Origin: Rhodospirillales bacterium
GTDB taxonomy: Bacteria; Pseudomonadota; Alphaproteobacteria; Bin95
DNA length: 64,000 bases
Assembly: GCA_038143065.1 (NCBI GenBank)
Contig: JAYQLI010000035.1
Location: forward strand, 64,001-128,000
Direction: 5' to 3'
Shown: piece by piece, positions 2,417 through 48,427 of the stretch
Layout of the letters: each line of letters begins with the position of its first letter
Position numbering within the stretch: position 1 is the first letter of the stretch
Notes under the pieces: generated by a model
Seen by the model: only the letters and a program-made list of their open reading frames with translations
Database searches by the model: none
Told to the model about the DNA's origin: nothing
Made by a program: the position numbers and the translations under genes

Positions 2417-3111
2417 CTAGTTCTGCCAAGCTCGGTGAAATCTGTGAGTCATGTAACTGGTTGCTAAAATTGGTGCCACCAGGTTAATGATTGGCATAGA
2501 AAATAAAAATGTAAGAAGAACTCCGTCTTGCAGGTTGGCGCGCTTATTACGCTTCCGCAGCAAGTTCGCATTGCTTGCTGTAAGGTGTCTGAAAGCGACC
2601 AGATCGAAATACTCCTTCCCAATAAATATCCATTGATTAGATAGAAAGGGATTGGTGCCAAGGGTGGGGCTAAAAACAGCAGGAATATTGAGATGATCAG
2701 CAGGCATAAGTTCAGAGCTATTGCTAATGATGCAAAGCGGAAACTCGCTGTTGCAATTTCGTGCCAGCGTTGATGATGACTTGATTTGTGTCCAGGATAA
2801 TGTCTCGCTTCAACTGCGTCGACGACATTGTCTAAGAAGAAGGCCTGCAGGAAGACTGCTACTGCGGGAAACAGAAAAAGAGCTACAACAATTGGAATAA
2901 TGTCAAAAAGAAGTTGAATGGCGTTATTCAGAAAAGACAGAAAAGTCCAACTTGGTGTCCATTCGCCTAAACCCGCACTTTTAATTAGCCAAATGCTAAG
3001 AATTACCATAGCGCTTAGCATCACCAATGCAGCTATCGCACTATAGAGAAGCGGCCTAATGATTTGTGGGTCCCGGAGCTGATCTAGTGCCTTTCTAAAA
3101 TCATTGATCAT
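2417..3111 (-). CDS. EI24/CysZ-like membrane protein (frameshift near 2615)
   Basis: Hydrophobic helices; FLDNVVDAVEARHYP, NGYLLG/EYFDLVAFRH, PIINLVAPILA motifs. Confidence 0.75.
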
Positions 3112-41664: not shown

Positions 41665-43211
41665 TCAGCGAGTTTTCGTACCCCTCCCCATAATGTATGA
41701 GGGGATTAAAGCCAGCGCCGCTACTACGGCCGTTAACATAAATGTGTCTTGGAAACCTTGTGTTTGTGCTTGCAGAAATACTGTTTGCCCAAGATAACTA
41801 ATTGCACCAGCTGATGACTCAATTGCGGACACACCGGACGCCTGCATTATGTTTACAATGTTAGACAAAGGTCTTGTGCAACTGCATTGTCTGGGGTTTG
41901 GCTCATTGTGATGGTTTGCGCATGATCAGCTGTTCGGCTTTCTAAAAATACCACCATTAGATTAACACCAGTCGCTCCGCCAAAAGTCCTTGCAAAATTT
42001 ATCAAACCTGCTCCCTGGCTTACTTGTTCTGGGCCAAGTGAACGCAGAGCCCCGGTATTTAATGAAGGAATTATCAATGACAAACCAAACCGGTTTACCA
42101 GCGTAAATAAGACAAAGATCCAGTATGGCGTGTTTGTATCTGCCACAGACATCAGAAGGAAGCCGAAGCCAAACCAAAATAAACCGGCCATGATAAGCAG
42201 ATGCGCTGGAAATCTATCTACAAGTCGGCCTGCAGTTGGGAACATGATTACCATCAATATCCCTGCTGGAATTAGAGCAACTCCTGCTTTTGTGGCTGAA
42301 AAGCCCTGGATGTCCTGCATAAAAACAGCAATGGCATAAATTGAGCCAAACATGCCAAAACCAAAAATAATCCCCACCAAAATTGCAGATGCAAATTGAG
42401 GATTTGTAAAAAGGCGGAGGTCTAGCATTGGCCACTTCGCAGTGAGCTGTCTGGCGATGAAAGCCAGCGTTGCTAAAGTACCAATAAAAAGCTCCAAAAT
42501 AATTCTATCGGAAGTCCACCCAAATCGCCTGCCGCTTGCGAGGCCATCAAGAACAAAGCCAAGGGCAAGAGCCATTAGGATCAGGCCAGTCCAGTCAAAA
42601 GGACGTGATGTGCCAGATCGACCAGCTGGCATGAAAGCTCCCCCAGCTACCATTGCGGCAAAGGCAAGAGGCAGAGGTATTAAAAAAACAAACCGCCAGC
42701 TAAGTTCGTCCTTCACAAATCCACCGATGGCAGGTCCAAGTCCCGGGGCCAAAACCACTCCGAGACTAAAAAGCCCCATGGCTGCTCCTCGTCGTTCCGG
42801 TGGAAAGACAGTAAAAATAATTGCCATAGTAAAGGGCTGCATTAATCCTGCACAAAATCCTTGAATGACGCGAGCCAGAATTACGGTTGAGTAATCGACT
42901 GCGGAAAATGCTAGGAATGAGCCTCCTACAAAAATTGCCATTGTTGCGAGAAATACTGTCCTCTGGCCAAAACGCTGTTGTAGCCAAGATGTGAGAAGCA
43001 TAGCTCCAGTCATTGAAGCGAAATATGCAGTTGAAAGCCATTGGGCTTTGTCTTGGCCAATACCAAAGGCCCCCATTACTGCAGGTACAGCTGTATTGAC
43101 GCTGGTAGACGAGAGCACCATACCGATCATTCCAATCAGTCCAGAGCCTGTCATGAGCCATCGCTCGGTCTCGGTAAATGCGGACCAACCTTGGTTTGCC
43201 GTAATAGCCAT
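41665..43211 (-). CDS. DHA2/EmrB-family efflux MFS (frameshift near 41865)
   Basis: RVIQGF, FPPERRGAAMG, APGLGPAIGG, FDWTG; many TM helices. Confidence 0.9.
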
Positions 43212-43252
43212 TAAATTAGAATGAGGGATAGTTGCGTTGCTTGAAGTAACTT

Positions 43253-44449
43253 TTAATTTCTGACGTCAATTTCTACTTCAACCATCATACCAGGAGAGAG
43301 ACGCTTTGGTTGTTTAGTGAACGCAATTTTGACTGGGATCCTTTGAGTGACCTTTGTAAAATTGCCACTTGGGTTTGGGGTTGGTAGAAGTGCAAATCTT
43401 GAAGTTGCCGCAGTTCCTATCTTCTCCACTTTCCCCATGAAGTTGTCGTCTGGATAGGCATCGACAGTAATATGGACAATCTGGTCAACGCTTAGACGGC
43501 GAACTTGTGTCTCTTTAATATTGGCTTCTACCCATACATTCTCAGGATTATGAAGCATTAGCACGCGCCGGCCTGGGCCTACGAATTCACCGTTTTCTAC
43601 GAAAACACGATCTATAATTCCGGGGATTGGTGCCCGAATAGAACGCTGGGCAATAAGTGCTTCTTGCCGAGCCATTCTAGCCATAAGCTCCGCTTCCTTA
43701 TGATCAAGAATAGCCAATTCGCTTTCTATGACCGACAACTCCCCTTTGTCAGCTTCTGCCTCTGCTGCTTCGCCACGTGAAGAGGCAATGTCTGCATCAG
43801 CGCGGCGAAGTTCACTTTCTAGTCGTGAAACTTCTGCCTCAGCTCGGTCTAGGCGAGAACGCGAAATAACGCGTCGATTAAAAAGACTTTGAAATCGATC
43901 AAACTCTTGTTTTGCAAGCTTTAATTCTGCAGCAAGGGCACTTCGCCGAGCTTGTTGTGCCTGAACTTCTGTTGCTCTTGTTTGTACTCTACTGTTTGTT
44001 TGTCGGGTAACCATGTCTGTTCGGGCTGCATACTCGGCCCTCTCGGCCTGAACGCCAGCGAGGGAGGCTTTCAGAGCGTCTAGCTCTAAGGCTTGGACTT
44101 TATTATCCACTTGAGCAAGGAGGGTGCCGGCCTCCACGGTGTCGCCGGACTCTACATTGAGTGCAACTAATAATCCTTCAACACGGCTGCCAACAGTAAT
44201 GTGATCAGTAGTAACTCGAGCGTCGTACTCATAAACGTGAGTCATTCGGCTCATTACCTCACGACCTGCAAAAATCATTGCTGCTACGGCGACAAGTCCA
44301 ATCGCAAAGTAACGCAAAGTTCTTTTTGGTCGGTGTCGTTGTGTTTTATTTGGGGTTGCCGATAGTGTACTTGAGTTAGCGTTATCCGCTGAACTTTGAG
44401 AGCTTGATAACGCATTTGTTTCTGAACCTTTTTCAGTGTCTTGTGCCAT
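43253..44449 (-). CDS. EmrA/HlyD membrane fusion protein
   Basis: IRAPIPG, WVEANIKET, SGNFTKVTQRIPVKI. Confidence 0.93.
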   Translation of the reverse strand: MAQDTEKGSETNALSSSQSSADNANSSTLSATPNKTQRHRPKRTLRYFAIGLVAVAAMIFAGREVMSRMTHVYEYDARVTTDHITVGSRVEGLLVALNVESGDTVEAGTLLAQVDNKVQALELDALKASLAGVQAERAEYAARTDMVTRQTNSRVQTRATEVQAQQARRSALAAELKLAKQEFDRFQSLFNRRVISRSRLDRAEAEVSRLESELRRADADIASSRGEAAEAEADKGELSVIESELAILDHKEAELMARMARQEALIAQRSIRAPIPGIIDRVFVENGEFVGPGRRVLMLHNPENVWVEANIKETQVRRLSVDQIVHITVDAYPDDNFMGKVEKIGTAATSRFALLPTPNPSGNFTKVTQRIPVKIAFTKQPKRLSPGMMVEVEIDVRN

Positions 44450-44909
44450 CAAGCATCTCCTTTGAGGTGGGGTGTAGAGAGACTTTCAAATCGACTTATC
44501 AATTGTGTAGTGAATTCAATCATTGCATTAACCTGCGCTGGGTCGAGGTCGCCGAGCACTTCTTGCCGAAGTTCAGCCGCAATAGTATCTACTTCTTGGA
44601 ATCGAGCCCGTCCGTGTTTGGTAAGGTGTATTAGGTTGGCTCGGCGGTCATCTGGATTTGGGTTGCGATCAACCAGGCCAGCTTCCTCTAACTGGTCAAT
44701 TTGGCGTACAAGTGTTGCACCTGAAATTCCCGCCCGCGCTGCAAGATCAAGCTGAGTTATTCCATCAACCTTGTCATTTAGGTGCATGAGCAAAATCCAA
44801 CGGGCTTGTGAGAGCCCAAGGGGCGCAATCTGTTGTCTAGTTCAGTCCGCCAGAGTCTTGCGAGAAGTCCAGTTTGTCTGCCCAAATTTGTTGGAGGATT
44901 GCGGGCCAT
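44449..44909 (-). CDS. MarR/SlyA-family regulator (frameshift near 44815)
   Basis: LARLWRTELDNRLRPLG/LSQARW, DQLEEAGLV, DDRRAN. Confidence 0.9.
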
Positions 44910-44929
44910 TACAGTTACTCTTTTATGAT

Positions 44930-44972
44930 CCTAATTATTAGCTACCTATATGTTAGTATCCTAATAATTAGG
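44930..44972. promoter_or_regulatory. Putative MarR/SlyA operator region
   Basis: Perfect 12-bp inverted repeat CCTAATTATTAG-N19-CTAATAATTAGG overlapping TTAG-N4-CTAA-type sites, 21 nt upstream of the MarR ATG. Confidence 0.65.
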
Positions 44973-45053
44973 GTGCAATTCAAGGAGGTCAACTCTCGCA
45001 AGCTTATTGTAGCCACTTAGTCGTTAATATGACCGCATCCTGATGCCGAGAAG

Positions 45054-45078
45054 TTTGTATGGCAGCTGCCATCACAAG
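45054..45078 (-). terminator. Hairpin downstream of the selenoprotein gene
   Basis: Perfect palindrome ATGGCAGCTGCCAT (45059-45072) with TTGT/ACAA extension; poor U-tract. Confidence 0.35.
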
Positions 45079-45098
45079 CATTCCGGGAAAAAATTATT

Positions 45099-45623
45099 TC
45101 ATTTATTCCCCGCCTGAATCCTCTCAAGAATTTTTGGCGCTGCTTCGAATGCAAGGGTCTTAAGCTCATCAGCAGTCTTATTTTGGATTGGGTGTGGCGT
45201 CCAAACAATTGCTGGAGCAAAACCCAATGCCTTACCTTGGGCTTCCGCTGCTTGTTGAAACTCCACTGTTGCTGTCGCACAGCCAGGGATCCCACGAACG
45301 TCGAGTTGGTGAATGTCATGCAAACTGCACGACGTACACGATCCTCAATCTGCTAAGGCTTCGACGACAATGTCACAACTTTCAACAATATCTTGCAGTA
45401 TAGATTCTGGTGCCGGTTTAGTATGCGTTGGCTTTTTAAATCTTATTGTTTTAACGCCTGCAGCCTGAATCAAGGGCTCTAGAGCGTCCATAAATTCATC
45501 AGAACGCTCTTTTGAGATAGATAAGAGACCGACAGTTTTTCCTGATATGTCGGGAGGAGGAGGGCGTCTTTCTCTGAGCGAAGAAGCGCTCTCTGCTGTA
45601 GGGTCTCGCATAGCATATGTCAT
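45099..45623 (-). CDS. UGSC-family selenoprotein, 174 aa, Sec at codon 93 (TGA 45347-45345)
   Basis: Two same-frame ORFs joined across one TGA: ...VVEALAD-U-GSCTSCSLHDIHQLDVRGIP...; SECIS-like hairpin follows. Confidence 0.9.
45307..45344 (-). promoter_or_regulatory. Bacterial SECIS-like hairpin
   Basis: UGA-11 nt-GUCGUGCA[GUU]UGCAUGAC; 8-bp stem with one G-U pair; G first in apical loop. Confidence 0.75.
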
Positions 45624-45627
45624 AGGT

Positions 45628-47069
45628 TCAATACTCCTCTAATGCTTGAGTTACCGGTCGAACTTCTGCATTGTTTCGTCCGCCGGTCCAACCACCAATA
45701 ATTGCTGACATCAAAGCTCCAGGCCCCCTGCTCTAACAACCAAAAGTCCGCCTGGATGAAATTTGTCGATCATCCCATTAGAGTCAGAGTACTTTTCTGC
45801 CTGAGCAGGCGTAATTCCAAGAGGGTGACCCGCACCTTCTAATATTTCTGATGTGGGACGCTTGAGAGCCTTATAAAGCCCATCTTCAATCTCTGCTCGG
45901 CCCCAACCATCTTTTCTGAAGATTTCATAGTGGTTAGGAGAAATGACTAGGATTGCATTGCCCCATCGTGCAAGTCGTGGGTGGTTAACGCTCCATAACT
46001 GCATTGCCATAGACTCACAGAGTTCTTCAGCTGTTCTACTTTTCTGGTCAACGAAGCCAGTTACGCCATCAGCATGGAATAGAGTGACCGCTGAAGCACC
46101 ACTGCTAACACCTCTTGCCTGAGCTAGTGGGATCCAATCCTCATCGCCTTCATCCTCCGCAAAGCAAAAAGTATATTTGCCAGGTTGTCCGAGGCACGCT
46201 CTGTCAATTTCTTGCGGACGACCGCCACCAACATTTCTGATAATCAATTGGAATGCACGCCCAATAGTGGCATTTGCTCGATTACCCTGGCCAAGAGCAT
46301 TTCCACCAGAATTCATGCCGATACGGCGTGAAATAGGGCCATTCACCAAGATAAGTGGGCCAGAGAATGCAAGGGTGCAAAGAAGTCCATGCATTGCAAA
46401 CTCTGGCTCAAGCGCTGCTTTCATGGCTCCAAGTAGCACAGGGAAGTATTCGGGGCGGCAGCCTGCCATAACGGCATTAACAGCAGCCTTTTCAACAGTG
46501 CAAGGAACAAGGTTTGGGGGAATTAATCCTATAATCTCGTCAGCTTTTCGGGTTGTACCCGCTAACATTCTTGCCACCCTTAAATCGGTGGGAGGTGTTA
46601 CTGGAAGGCCATCAGTCCAGCCTCGATCGAACGCTACCTCCATGGGATCATTGTCGTCATCGACTTCTATCGCGCGCGAATTAAGTACTATTTCACCTGC
46701 CTTAAGGGCTAGTCTTTCTACTGCTCCAGGGGCAACATTTAGAGCTCCGCAGCCTGGCATATTTTCAGGCATTGAAGCCCCAAGATTATCTATCCCAGTA
46801 ATTTCTCTCCAGTCGTTCTTATTCCAGCCATAGACGCGTGAAGTCTCTGTTGTTTGGTTGAATGCAATAACGGTTGGAACTATTTCAATTCTAAGCCTAT
46901 GACTTTCCAGCAATTCATCATCGTGGCGAGGGTTTAGGCCACGTGGAAACTCCGGTATGTCCTGAGTAATAACTTCAAGATCCAATCCTGCTGCACGCAT
47001 TTCCGCTAATGCAGGGACTGCTAGGCGGCACGTTGGACAATCTTCTTTAACAACCGCGACAAAACGCAT
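45628..47069 (-). CDS. Thioredoxin-like CxxC domain fused to uncharacterised domain; partner of the UGSC protein (frameshift near 45725)
   Basis: VKEDCPTC, EIVPT, PGCG linker, GWTDGLPVTPPT, NAVMAGC, GNRANATIGRA; tail GGPGALMSAIIGGW...EEY* ends 4 nt before the UGSC ATG. Confidence 0.8.
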
Positions 47070-47158
47070 TAGCTGTCCTCCTCCAGGCAACGATAGCCCC
47101 AGACGAAATGGAGCGCTACATTGTTAATGTTAACTATCAAGCGAAGCGGATAAGAAAA

Positions 47159-48427
47159 ATGGATTTTGGCTATTCAGATAAGGTGAAGCAGCTACAAGAG
47201 CGTGTTTCGGACTTTATGGCGAGGGAGATTGTTCCTCGCGATAAGGAGTGGCACGAGCTAACTGAATCCGGTGTTTTCCCTCCTGCTTTTTGTGAAGATA
47301 TTAAATCAAAAGCTAAAGCAGAGGGACTTTGGAATTTCTTCTTACCAAATCTTCCCGAAGAAGCTCCAGGTCAAGGCCTTAGCAATCTCGAGTATGCCCC
47401 GCTTGCTGAAATAATGGGTCGTATTTACTGGTCGCCCGAGATGTTCAACTGCAATGCACCGGACACGGGAAATATGGAAGTATTTCACATGTTCGGTACG
47501 CCTGAGCAGAAAGATACCTATCTGAAGCCCCTTTTAGAGGGCGAAATCCGCTCGGCTTTTTGTATGACGGAGCCTGAAGTGGCTTCCTCCGATGCCACGA
47601 ACGTCCAAACGAGAATTGAAAAGGATGGGAATGAATATGTCATAAATGGGCGTAAGTGGTTCATTACTAATGCTGAGCATCCCAACCTTGGCGTGATGAT
47701 AGTTATGGGTAAGACCGATCCGAGTGCAGAGACCCACCGTCAACAGTCACAGGTCATTGTGGATCCCAATACACCAGGTGTTTCTATCCGCAGAAATTTG
47801 CCTGTAATGCATCACATTAGCCCTGAGGGACACTGCGAGGTCGTCTTCGATAATGTCAGAGTACCGACAACTAACATCATTGCCGAAGAGGGTGATGGAT
47901 TCATGATTGCCCAGGCACGCCTAGGTCCGGGGCGGATCCACCACTGCATGCGTACCATAGGTCAGTGTGAGGTGGCTTTGGAGCTTATGATAGAACGTGG
48001 GTTGAACCGGAATACCTTCGGCAAAAGAACTATTGATCACGATACTGTAAGAGAGGCTGTAGCACTGTCGCGCCAAGAGATAGATATGGCTCGGCTCTTG
48101 GTTCTTCGTGCAGCTTGGATGATCGACACAGAAGGGCCGCGTGCCGCTCGCATGGAAGTGTCAAAGATTAAGGTAGTTGCCGCGAGACTTCAGACGACGG
48201 TCGTCAACCGCGCCATGCAAGTATTTGGTGCTATGGGCCTAACGCCTGATACTCCACTTTCATACCTTTGGACTTGGGGTAGGGCACTTCAGTTTATTGA
48301 TGGACCAGACGAAGTGCACTTGCGTACAATTGCTCGTAGCCTTGTCCGAAATCATGAAAAGAATGGTATGAGCGAGGTGATGCCTCACTTCTATCGTGTT
48401 TCAAAGGACTTCGACGAAAGTCGTTAA
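47159..48427 (+). CDS. Acyl-CoA dehydrogenase (FadE2/ACAD11-like)
   Basis: NCNAPDTGNME, MTEPEVASSDA, GRKWF, RLGPGRIHHCMR, DGPDEVH. Confidence 0.93.
   Translation: MDFGYSDKVKQLQERVSDFMAREIVPRDKEWHELTESGVFPPAFCEDIKSKAKAEGLWNFFLPNLPEEAPGQGLSNLEYAPLAEIMGRIYWSPEMFNCNAPDTGNMEVFHMFGTPEQKDTYLKPLLEGEIRSAFCMTEPEVASSDATNVQTRIEKDGNEYVINGRKWFITNAEHPNLGVMIVMGKTDPSAETHRQQSQVIVDPNTPGVSIRRNLPVMHHISPEGHCEVVFDNVRVPTTNIIAEEGDGFMIAQARLGPGRIHHCMRTIGQCEVALELMIERGLNRNTFGKRTIDHDTVREAVALSRQEIDMARLLVLRAAWMIDTEGPRAARMEVSKIKVVAARLQTTVVNRAMQVFGAMGLTPDTPLSYLWTWGRALQFIDGPDEVHLRTIARSLVRNHEKNGMSEVMPHFYRVSKDFDESR

Follow-up and report, generated by a model that had tools for sequence, protein, structure and literature searches.

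The UGSC gene and its upstream partner

The window analyzed here is a stretch of 64,000 nucleotides (nt) from a Rhodospirillales bacterium (GenBank assembly GCA_038143065.1, contig JAYQLI010000035.1, positions 64,001 to 128,000 of the forward strand). On its minus strand, a 92-amino-acid (aa) open reading frame (ORF; 45623..45345) starts with the ATG at 45623 and ends in GCC TTA GCA GAT TGA; downstream of this TGA (45347-45345), the same frame continues with GGA TCG TGT ACG TCG TGC AGT TTG CAT and runs for 81 codons until it is closed by a terminal TGA at 45101-45099. Readthrough of the first TGA gives a product of 174 aa with the motif D-U-G-S-C-T-S-C (Table 1). A first-pass annotation, made from the letters of the DNA, had joined the two ORFs into one gene read through UGA and had set this interruption apart from the other breaks, which it took for indels. 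Both points are borne out: the letters and coordinates of the two ORFs are correct, a single match to the Pfam family PF24696 spans the TGA, and the UGA lies in frame, whereas the neighboring gene is broken by a 1-base indel that is absent from other contigs.

That neighbor, the partner gene, lies immediately upstream on the same strand and, when intact, encodes a thioredoxin-like module followed by a large unannotated domain. The called ORF (47090..45711) ends early, with one base missing at 45723 in a run of G/C. The intact homolog P0002 (97% identical; 480 aa; ending in LEEY) makes 47069 the most probable start of the partner. Contigs of two DNA runs from two studies (X1 and X5) and of an RNA-library run (X15) have an extra base behind 45723, which makes an error of assembly or a strain-specific change the probable cause of the break. 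The TGA stop of the partner (45630-45628) falls 4 nt before the ATG of the UGSC gene, and a GAGGAG, which may serve as the ribosome-binding site of the latter, sits inside the 3' end of the former.

Beyond the UGSC stop, 27 nt downstream, we observed a perfect 14-nt palindrome (ATGGCAGCTGCCAT, 45059-45072) without a following T run, which may act as the stem of a terminator or as an operator of the MarR-type gene that follows (44449-44793). The latter belongs to an efflux-type operon (41853-44793, minus strand) comprising a MarR regulator, an HlyD-type membrane-fusion protein, and an MFS transporter, of which the MarR and HlyD-type genes are supported by Pfam matches. On the other side, the partner gene and a plus-strand acyl-CoA dehydrogenase gene (47108-48427) point away from each other.

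Table 1. Features of the UGSC locus, with related genes elsewhere in the same genome (G000); positions without a prefix are those of the window
Feature	Position	Strand	Basis
UGSC-family selenoprotein gene (174 aa and terminal TGA)	45099..45623	minus	PF24696 match, AF2 model, fold matches
Sec codon UGA (residue 93, motif D-U-G-S-C)	45345..45347	minus	same column in 30/30 loci; Cys in homologs
SECIS-like element (UGA, 11-nt spacer partly paired in a lower stem, apical hairpin)	45298..45347	minus	folding, codon freeze, published model
Partner gene (~480 aa when intact; thioredoxin-like module and ~345-aa unannotated domain)	45628..47069	minus	homolog P0002, contigs, adjacency, AF2 model
Thioredoxin-fold module of partner (C-P-T-C)	46785..47069	minus	structure match to 6z7o, thioredoxin profiles, conserved CxxC
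C-terminal domain of partner ("Unknown_1" type)	45628..46667	minus	no family; conservation; weak Foldseek matches
GAGGAG, ribosome-binding-like site 10 nt 5' of the UGSC ATG	45634..45639	minus	read from sequence; function inferred
Further UGSC domains	G000:C35:915353-915850; C35:1743585-1744094; C35:2125540-2126064; C36:12485-12991		
PrdB-like genes with in-frame TGA	G000:C35:1680936-1681865; C35:2092632-2093246 (ORF L080:724-1950); C35:2334982-2335521		

Membership in the UGSC family

With Cys substituted for Sec, the 174-aa product matched PF24696 ("UGSC") with 124.5 bits against a gathering score of 25 (residues 5-169, profile positions 2-170 of 172), and NF041046 ("UGSC family (seleno)protein") with 124.1 bits (E = 4.6e-36), which is 0.9 bit below the cut-off of 125, the first 27 residues being unaligned. 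The gene is a member of a family that has been in print since 2005-2008, and, since UGSC is curated and published, the selenoprotein call as such is ordinary. Zhang and Gladyshev (2008; PMC2398784) count 255 Sec forms in the GOS data versus 21 Cys forms, find the family to be used more in non-marine aquatic samples, describe it as "likely" to have a thioredoxin (Trx) fold, and give one fusion with a domain termed "Unknown_1" (Fig. S1A of that work); in a 2026 review (PMC13188914), UGSC is still listed among the uncharacterized selenoproteins. The first-pass annotation had spoken of a predicted family from marine metagenomes with no assigned function; going by the treatment of UGSC in these two papers, the family and its lack of a function stand, and its confinement to marine samples does not. 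The gene described here shares with the UGSC of Zhang and Gladyshev the motif D-[U/C]-G-S-C, a length of ~175 aa, the occurrence of Sec/Cys pairs, and an aquatic origin, but differs in a predicted fold that is flavodoxin-like rather than Trx-like (see below) and in a third Cys that is specific to a subfamily. This last point also narrows the UxxCxxC pattern noted at first: it is present in the gene at hand, but across an alignment of 83 sequences, conservation reaches at least 90% at D92, C93, G94, and C96 and stays below that level at C99, so that UxxCxxC describes only the subfamily of this gene and the family-wide motif is U-x-x-C.

An exhaustive search of 1.84 billion representative sequences recovered 751 matches at E values of up to 0.001, of which we classified the best 150. 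Among these, 91 span the Sec column, with Cys in 83, Ser in 2, Leu, Gly, and Ala in 1 each, and a gap in 3. Fragments make up another 50, of which 40 are N-terminal and stop precisely at residue 92 and 10 are C-terminal and begin past the Sec column, which is the pattern expected if gene callers stop at Sec codons; the remainder are 8 N-terminal matches within longer proteins and 1 other. A natural Cys form also adjoins a homolog of the partner gene (in the genome G270).

Probable recoding of the UGA as selenocysteine

An in-frame TGA was found in all 115 matches recovered by a six-frame search, in 29 of 41 related genomes. Across the 30 loci that we fetched, it occupies the identical column within D-U-G-S-C at protein identities down to 30%. 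Together with the prevalence of Cys at this column among the representatives, this agrees with the expectation, set out beforehand, that homologs would show either Cys or UGA there. Conservation of this kind, extending at the protein level over both halves, which are matched by one profile, and accompanied by the SECIS-like element and Sec machinery described below, leaves very little room for a true stop that ends a broken gene or separates two independent small ORFs, even though translation table 11 yields two ORFs and genuine frame breaks occur nearby in the assembly (in the partner gene and the Ndh-SelD fusion gene). Nor does the codon appear to be a misread TGC or TGT, a point that had been marked for checking, as public contigs keep the TGA: contigs from DNA runs of two studies cover it, none of the differences listed for them falls on the codon, and for the spanning contig of run X1 both differences are listed and neither is at the UGA. 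Contigs from RNA libraries of two studies likewise cover the locus and bridge both the UGA and the junction between the partner and UGSC genes; because contigs can show neither transcription nor a single transcript, we do not take them as expression.

Starting 11 nt past the UGA, an apical hairpin at 45333-45315 (minus strand; GUCGUGCA-GUU-UGCAUGAC) folds with -9.1 kcal/mol, a stability reached by 0 of 200 shuffled sequences, and the 50-nt element that contains it folds with -16.5 kcal/mol, reached by 10 of 200. The fold of a 71-nt stretch is not unusually stable (z = -0.39), and, its energy alone not being significant, we rely on the hairpin, its conservation, and codon usage. The bacterial SECIS model as given in PMC13188914 has a loop of 3 to 9 nt with a G in its first two positions, a stem of 4 to 16 bp, a distance of 16 to 37 nt from the UGA, and an energy of at most -7.5 kcal/mol; the present hairpin, with its 3-nt GUU loop, 8-bp stem, and 19 nt between UGA and loop, agrees with the model on every count. 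The apical helix persists across all 30 loci (paired in 96.3% of cells), with one compensatory CG>GC change (locus L048); for the lower stem, of which the UGA itself forms part, the paired share is 74.8%. The hairpin varies so little that covariation is thin: four of its eight apical pairs are invariant, and a slid-partner control gives a similar value (0.086 at -1 versus 0.080). The stronger signal is the freezing of synonymous sites rather than covariation. Codons +4 to +10 after the UGA use a single codon in 97 to 100% of sequences; the mean share of the top codon is 0.90 for the 8 conserved codons within +1 to +11 versus 0.64 for 52 conserved codons elsewhere; and His +9 is CAT in 30/30, whereas His +52 is CAC in 83%. 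Public metagenome contigs of other organisms align only to 45313-45347, a 35-nt segment that takes in the UGA and the hairpin, and contig depth doubles in the bin that holds this segment. A scan of 44900-45800 against Rfam at E values of up to 10 returned no SECIS family and two matches at chance level.

The first-pass annotation had further surmised that the host uses selenocysteine, and all four genes that it named were located on the window's own contig, each above its cut-off: selD (280 bits), selA (496 bits), the adjoining selB (435 bits), and selC, a tRNA-Sec with the anticodon TCA (UCA) (71.5 bits). The selA profile match extends 18 codons beyond the TAA that ends a 429-aa ORF (L005 3423-3477, G000:C35), so that SelA is either slightly short or interrupted by a further small break. 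As assembled, the Ndh-SelD fusion gene changes frame (L001, G000:C35:516288-520172, at about 2844-3053), with frame -3 matching residues 21-188 of a 727-aa homolog and frame -1 matching residues 248-719; its SelD part is intact, with a Cys-type active site (C-G-G-C-G-A-K). Should the breaks in selA, Ndh-SelD, and the partner gene be real and not artifacts of assembly, the strain may be losing the system.

A tRNA-Sec with a UCA anticodon, a selB gene, and a model-conforming SECIS after the codon are out of keeping with readthrough by some other route (a reassigned code or decoding by near-cognate Trp or Cys), a reading that retains hardly any plausibility given that TGA is an ordinary stop in the window, where it ends 15 of the 38 open frames of at least 250 codons as well as the UGSC and partner genes. 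Judged from sequence comparison, the locus is thus almost certainly one intact UGSC-family selenoprotein gene in which a SECIS directs the reading of UGA as Sec.

The partner protein

Homologs of the partner number at least 7,992 in the database searched and, if named at all, are called "thioredoxin family protein" or "hypothetical." Its large domain matched no Pfam or NCBIfam family, sequence and profile searches of the PDB returned no relative of either this domain or UGSC, and the ESM Atlas returned only unnamed clusters. The AF2 model of the partner (pLDDT 91.7) shows an N-terminal module with the thioredoxin fold (6z7o_A; Z = 10.2, rmsd 1.6 over 84 aligned residues), which is also matched by thioredoxin profiles (E = 4.8e-4); both VIA-align lists for the partner are filled by thioredoxins that match residues 1-93. 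A CxxC is present in all 56 sequences that have the module. In P0002 numbering, the linker motif P-G-C107-G retains its Cys in 57/57 homologs, C204 (64/66), H227 (62/66), and C302 (65/66) are nearly invariant, and D153, R271, D289, and E305 are invariant. For the large domain, Foldseek gave only weak matches, to class I fumarate hydratase alpha (7xky_A; E = 5.4e-4, TMq 0.24, TMt 0.35, rmsd 11.8) and to cyclic amide hydrolases.

Pairing, domain fusions, and gene neighborhoods

A homolog of the partner flanks UGSC in all 30 fetched loci: it lies immediately upstream in 28, is cut by the locus edge in L044, and is fused in frame in L048. The same holds, beside or within UGSC, in 11 of 12 further loci, including distant paralogs and two fused copies from the present genome, the exception (L056) being a sub-threshold UGSC match. 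Of 401 genomes sampled from the phylum, 5 have UGSC above the cut-off, these same 5 have the partner domain, and the remaining 396 have neither. No other conserved neighbor was found in the neighborhoods annotated. From these genomic associations, UGSC and its partner very likely form an obligate functional pair.

The genome itself contains four more UGSC domains, i.e., five in total (Table 1), three of the four with an in-frame TGA and one without. All four have a homolog of the partner domain beside or within them; in two the domains are fused (open frames of 578 and 566 aa), and one locus carries two tandem copies of the partner. In L048, L061, and L062, UGSC is fused to the domain that the upstream gene described here encodes at its C-terminal end, and we take this domain to be the Unknown_1 of the single fusion given in PMC2398784. 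Unlike in that fusion, the present locus has two separate, translationally coupled genes, and the partner has an N-terminal thioredoxin module; the regular neighborhood and the fusions with thioredoxin-reductase (TrxR) and Redoxin domains find no mention in the text on UGSC of that paper. These fusions emerged from a census of the best 120 homologs of the partner large domain with a length of at least 570 aa, in which 49 carry UGSC (PF24696), 27 carry TrxR-type domains (PF07992), 9 carry an AhpC/Redoxin thioredoxin-fold domain, 1 an AhpD-like domain, and 11 assorted other domains, with none in 23. Genes for TrxR-like proteins also adjoin the pair in L074 and L076.

Acyl-CoA dehydrogenase-type genes are found in 4 of 18 neighborhoods of the pair, and CoA-transferase III, AMP-binding, alpha/beta-hydrolase, and TrxR-like genes each recur two to three times; these recurrences are too weak for us to name a substrate. 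In another member of the class (G244), we observed the pair directly between selA-selB and the Ndh-SelD fusion gene (L073, G244:C1:1388085-1402588).

Predicted fold of UGSC

The AF2 model of UGSC, built from the 83-sequence alignment (pLDDT 91.6), is a five-strand beta-alpha-beta sandwich in which Sec93 follows strand 3 (residues 85-91) and stands at the start of a helix (residues 94-109). Its structural neighbors are flavodoxin, WrbA, and SsuE (TM 0.4-0.5). The best match, 8s7v_H (Z = 12.4, rmsd 3.2, 132 aligned residues), is only ~1 Z above a designed protein and generic Rossmann/CheY-like folds (Z ~10), and hence we draw no functional inference from it. No thioredoxin is among the structural matches listed for the model. 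The fold is thus predicted to be flavodoxin-like and not, as was proposed in 2008, thioredoxin-like. This bears on the default of the literature, under which UGSC would be a free-standing thioredoxin-like thiol/selenol oxidoreductase and the upstream gene a mere neighbor: the UxxC redox motif suits such a protein well enough, but with a model that matches flavodoxin-like proteins and with adjacency or fusion universal in the loci examined and the co-occurrence in the 401-genome sample, we judge it decidedly improbable.

Possible relationship to protein B

Comparison of the UGSC profile with a profile of PrdB-like proteins (27 genes read through UGA) in hhalign gave a probability of 85.4% (E = 5.8e-6) over 68 columns, with Sec aligned on Sec and the flanking strand, the helix, and a "GIP" strand in register; controls gave 0.95% and 0.25%, and comparisons with single sequences gave 64% and 9%. 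When the 83 UGSC sequences were compared with Pfam at E values of up to 1, the family of protein B (PF07355) was not among the 25 families listed, and 14 unlisted families each matched at most one UGSC member. The genome also has three PrdB-like (PF07355) genes of its own with in-frame TGA and U-P-x-C motifs, which makes it rich in selenoproteins; the Pfam GRDB match in these stops just short of the Sec codon.

Protein B of the Grd/Prd systems works with thiol or thioredoxin reductants. Like protein B (GrdB/PrdB and the marine PrdB-like proteins), UGSC has its Sec in a U-x-x-C right after a beta strand and before a helix, and protein B works with a second protein, as we propose for UGSC. Unlike protein B, UGSC lacks the long N-terminal region, to which the partner shows no relation either (hhalign, 0.95%), and the similarity is confined to ~68 residues. 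The profile alignment points to a Sec core that UGSC and PrdB-like proteins may share. That UGSC also performs reductive cleavage of the GrdB/PrdB type, as the analogy might suggest, is a possibility to which we would attach only a rather low likelihood.

A proposed two-part selenoenzyme

Taken as a whole, the evidence lets us hold with good confidence that UGSC is a Sec protein that would form, with its partner, a two-part enzyme. UGSC would be the selenol-bearing subunit, and the large domain encoded immediately upstream would be the other part. Sec93, at the helix N terminus of the flavodoxin-like fold, would react with a substrate that the partner domain holds in place and would next be trapped as a selenenylsulfide with Cys96 of the UxxC. 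The partner's own CPTC module would then re-reduce UGSC, possibly via the conserved linker Cys107, and the electrons would ultimately come from NAD(P)H through a flavoprotein of the TrxR type. The electron route inferred on this basis would run from NAD(P)H via a TrxR-type flavoprotein and a thioredoxin-type CxxC to U93/C96 with the partner large domain. The redox drive is suggested by the fusions with thioredoxin, TrxR, and Redoxin domains, the adjoining TrxR-like genes, and the conserved cysteines of the partner. As in known thioredoxin/TrxR systems, the partner module has the thioredoxin fold with a CxxC, and the partner domain is elsewhere fused to TrxR-type flavoproteins; in contrast to them, the module shares one polypeptide with a single dedicated client domain and would not be a general reductant. 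As to function, we lean, with moderate confidence, toward UGSC being the Sec subunit of a reductase driven by the thioredoxin system.

The seven Cys/Sec positions conserved across the two proteins, and the location of the pair among sel genes in G244, would also fit a pair that does not reduce an organic substrate at all and instead carries or relays selenide or persulfide to SelD or another acceptor. That arrangement is seen in only 1 of 15 annotated neighborhoods, however, and selenoprotein genes frequently adjoin sel genes anyway; the other neighbors are mostly acyl-CoA and hydrolase genes, and several diverged copies of the pair in one genome, as in the five UGSC domains here, fit enzymes diversified by substrate better than a housekeeping carrier. 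We therefore regard such a carrier as improbable and retain the thioredoxin-driven two-part enzyme as the preferred reading.

Implications for the UGSC family

According to PMC2398784, UGSC was among the most abundant selenoprotein families of ocean and freshwater metagenomes. Gene callers still frequently split its genes, as the 50 fragments among the best 150 representatives show. The tie to a partner and the thioredoxin/TrxR fusions go beyond what the published accounts say in their passages on UGSC, as do the predicted flavodoxin-like fold and a possible PrdB/GrdB kinship. We suggest, tentatively and at somewhat less than even likelihood, that the pair may represent a widespread, undescribed two-component selenoenzyme that would be fed by NAD(P)H via TrxR/thioredoxin-type modules, with a Sec core that shares its ancestry with protein B and with several paralogous pairs per genome that would have diversified to use different small organic compounds, perhaps acyl-CoA-linked. 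For a family long without a function, the fixed partner, its thioredoxin/TrxR fusions, the fold, and the possible PrdB/GrdB kinship open the way to concrete experiments toward what UGSC does.
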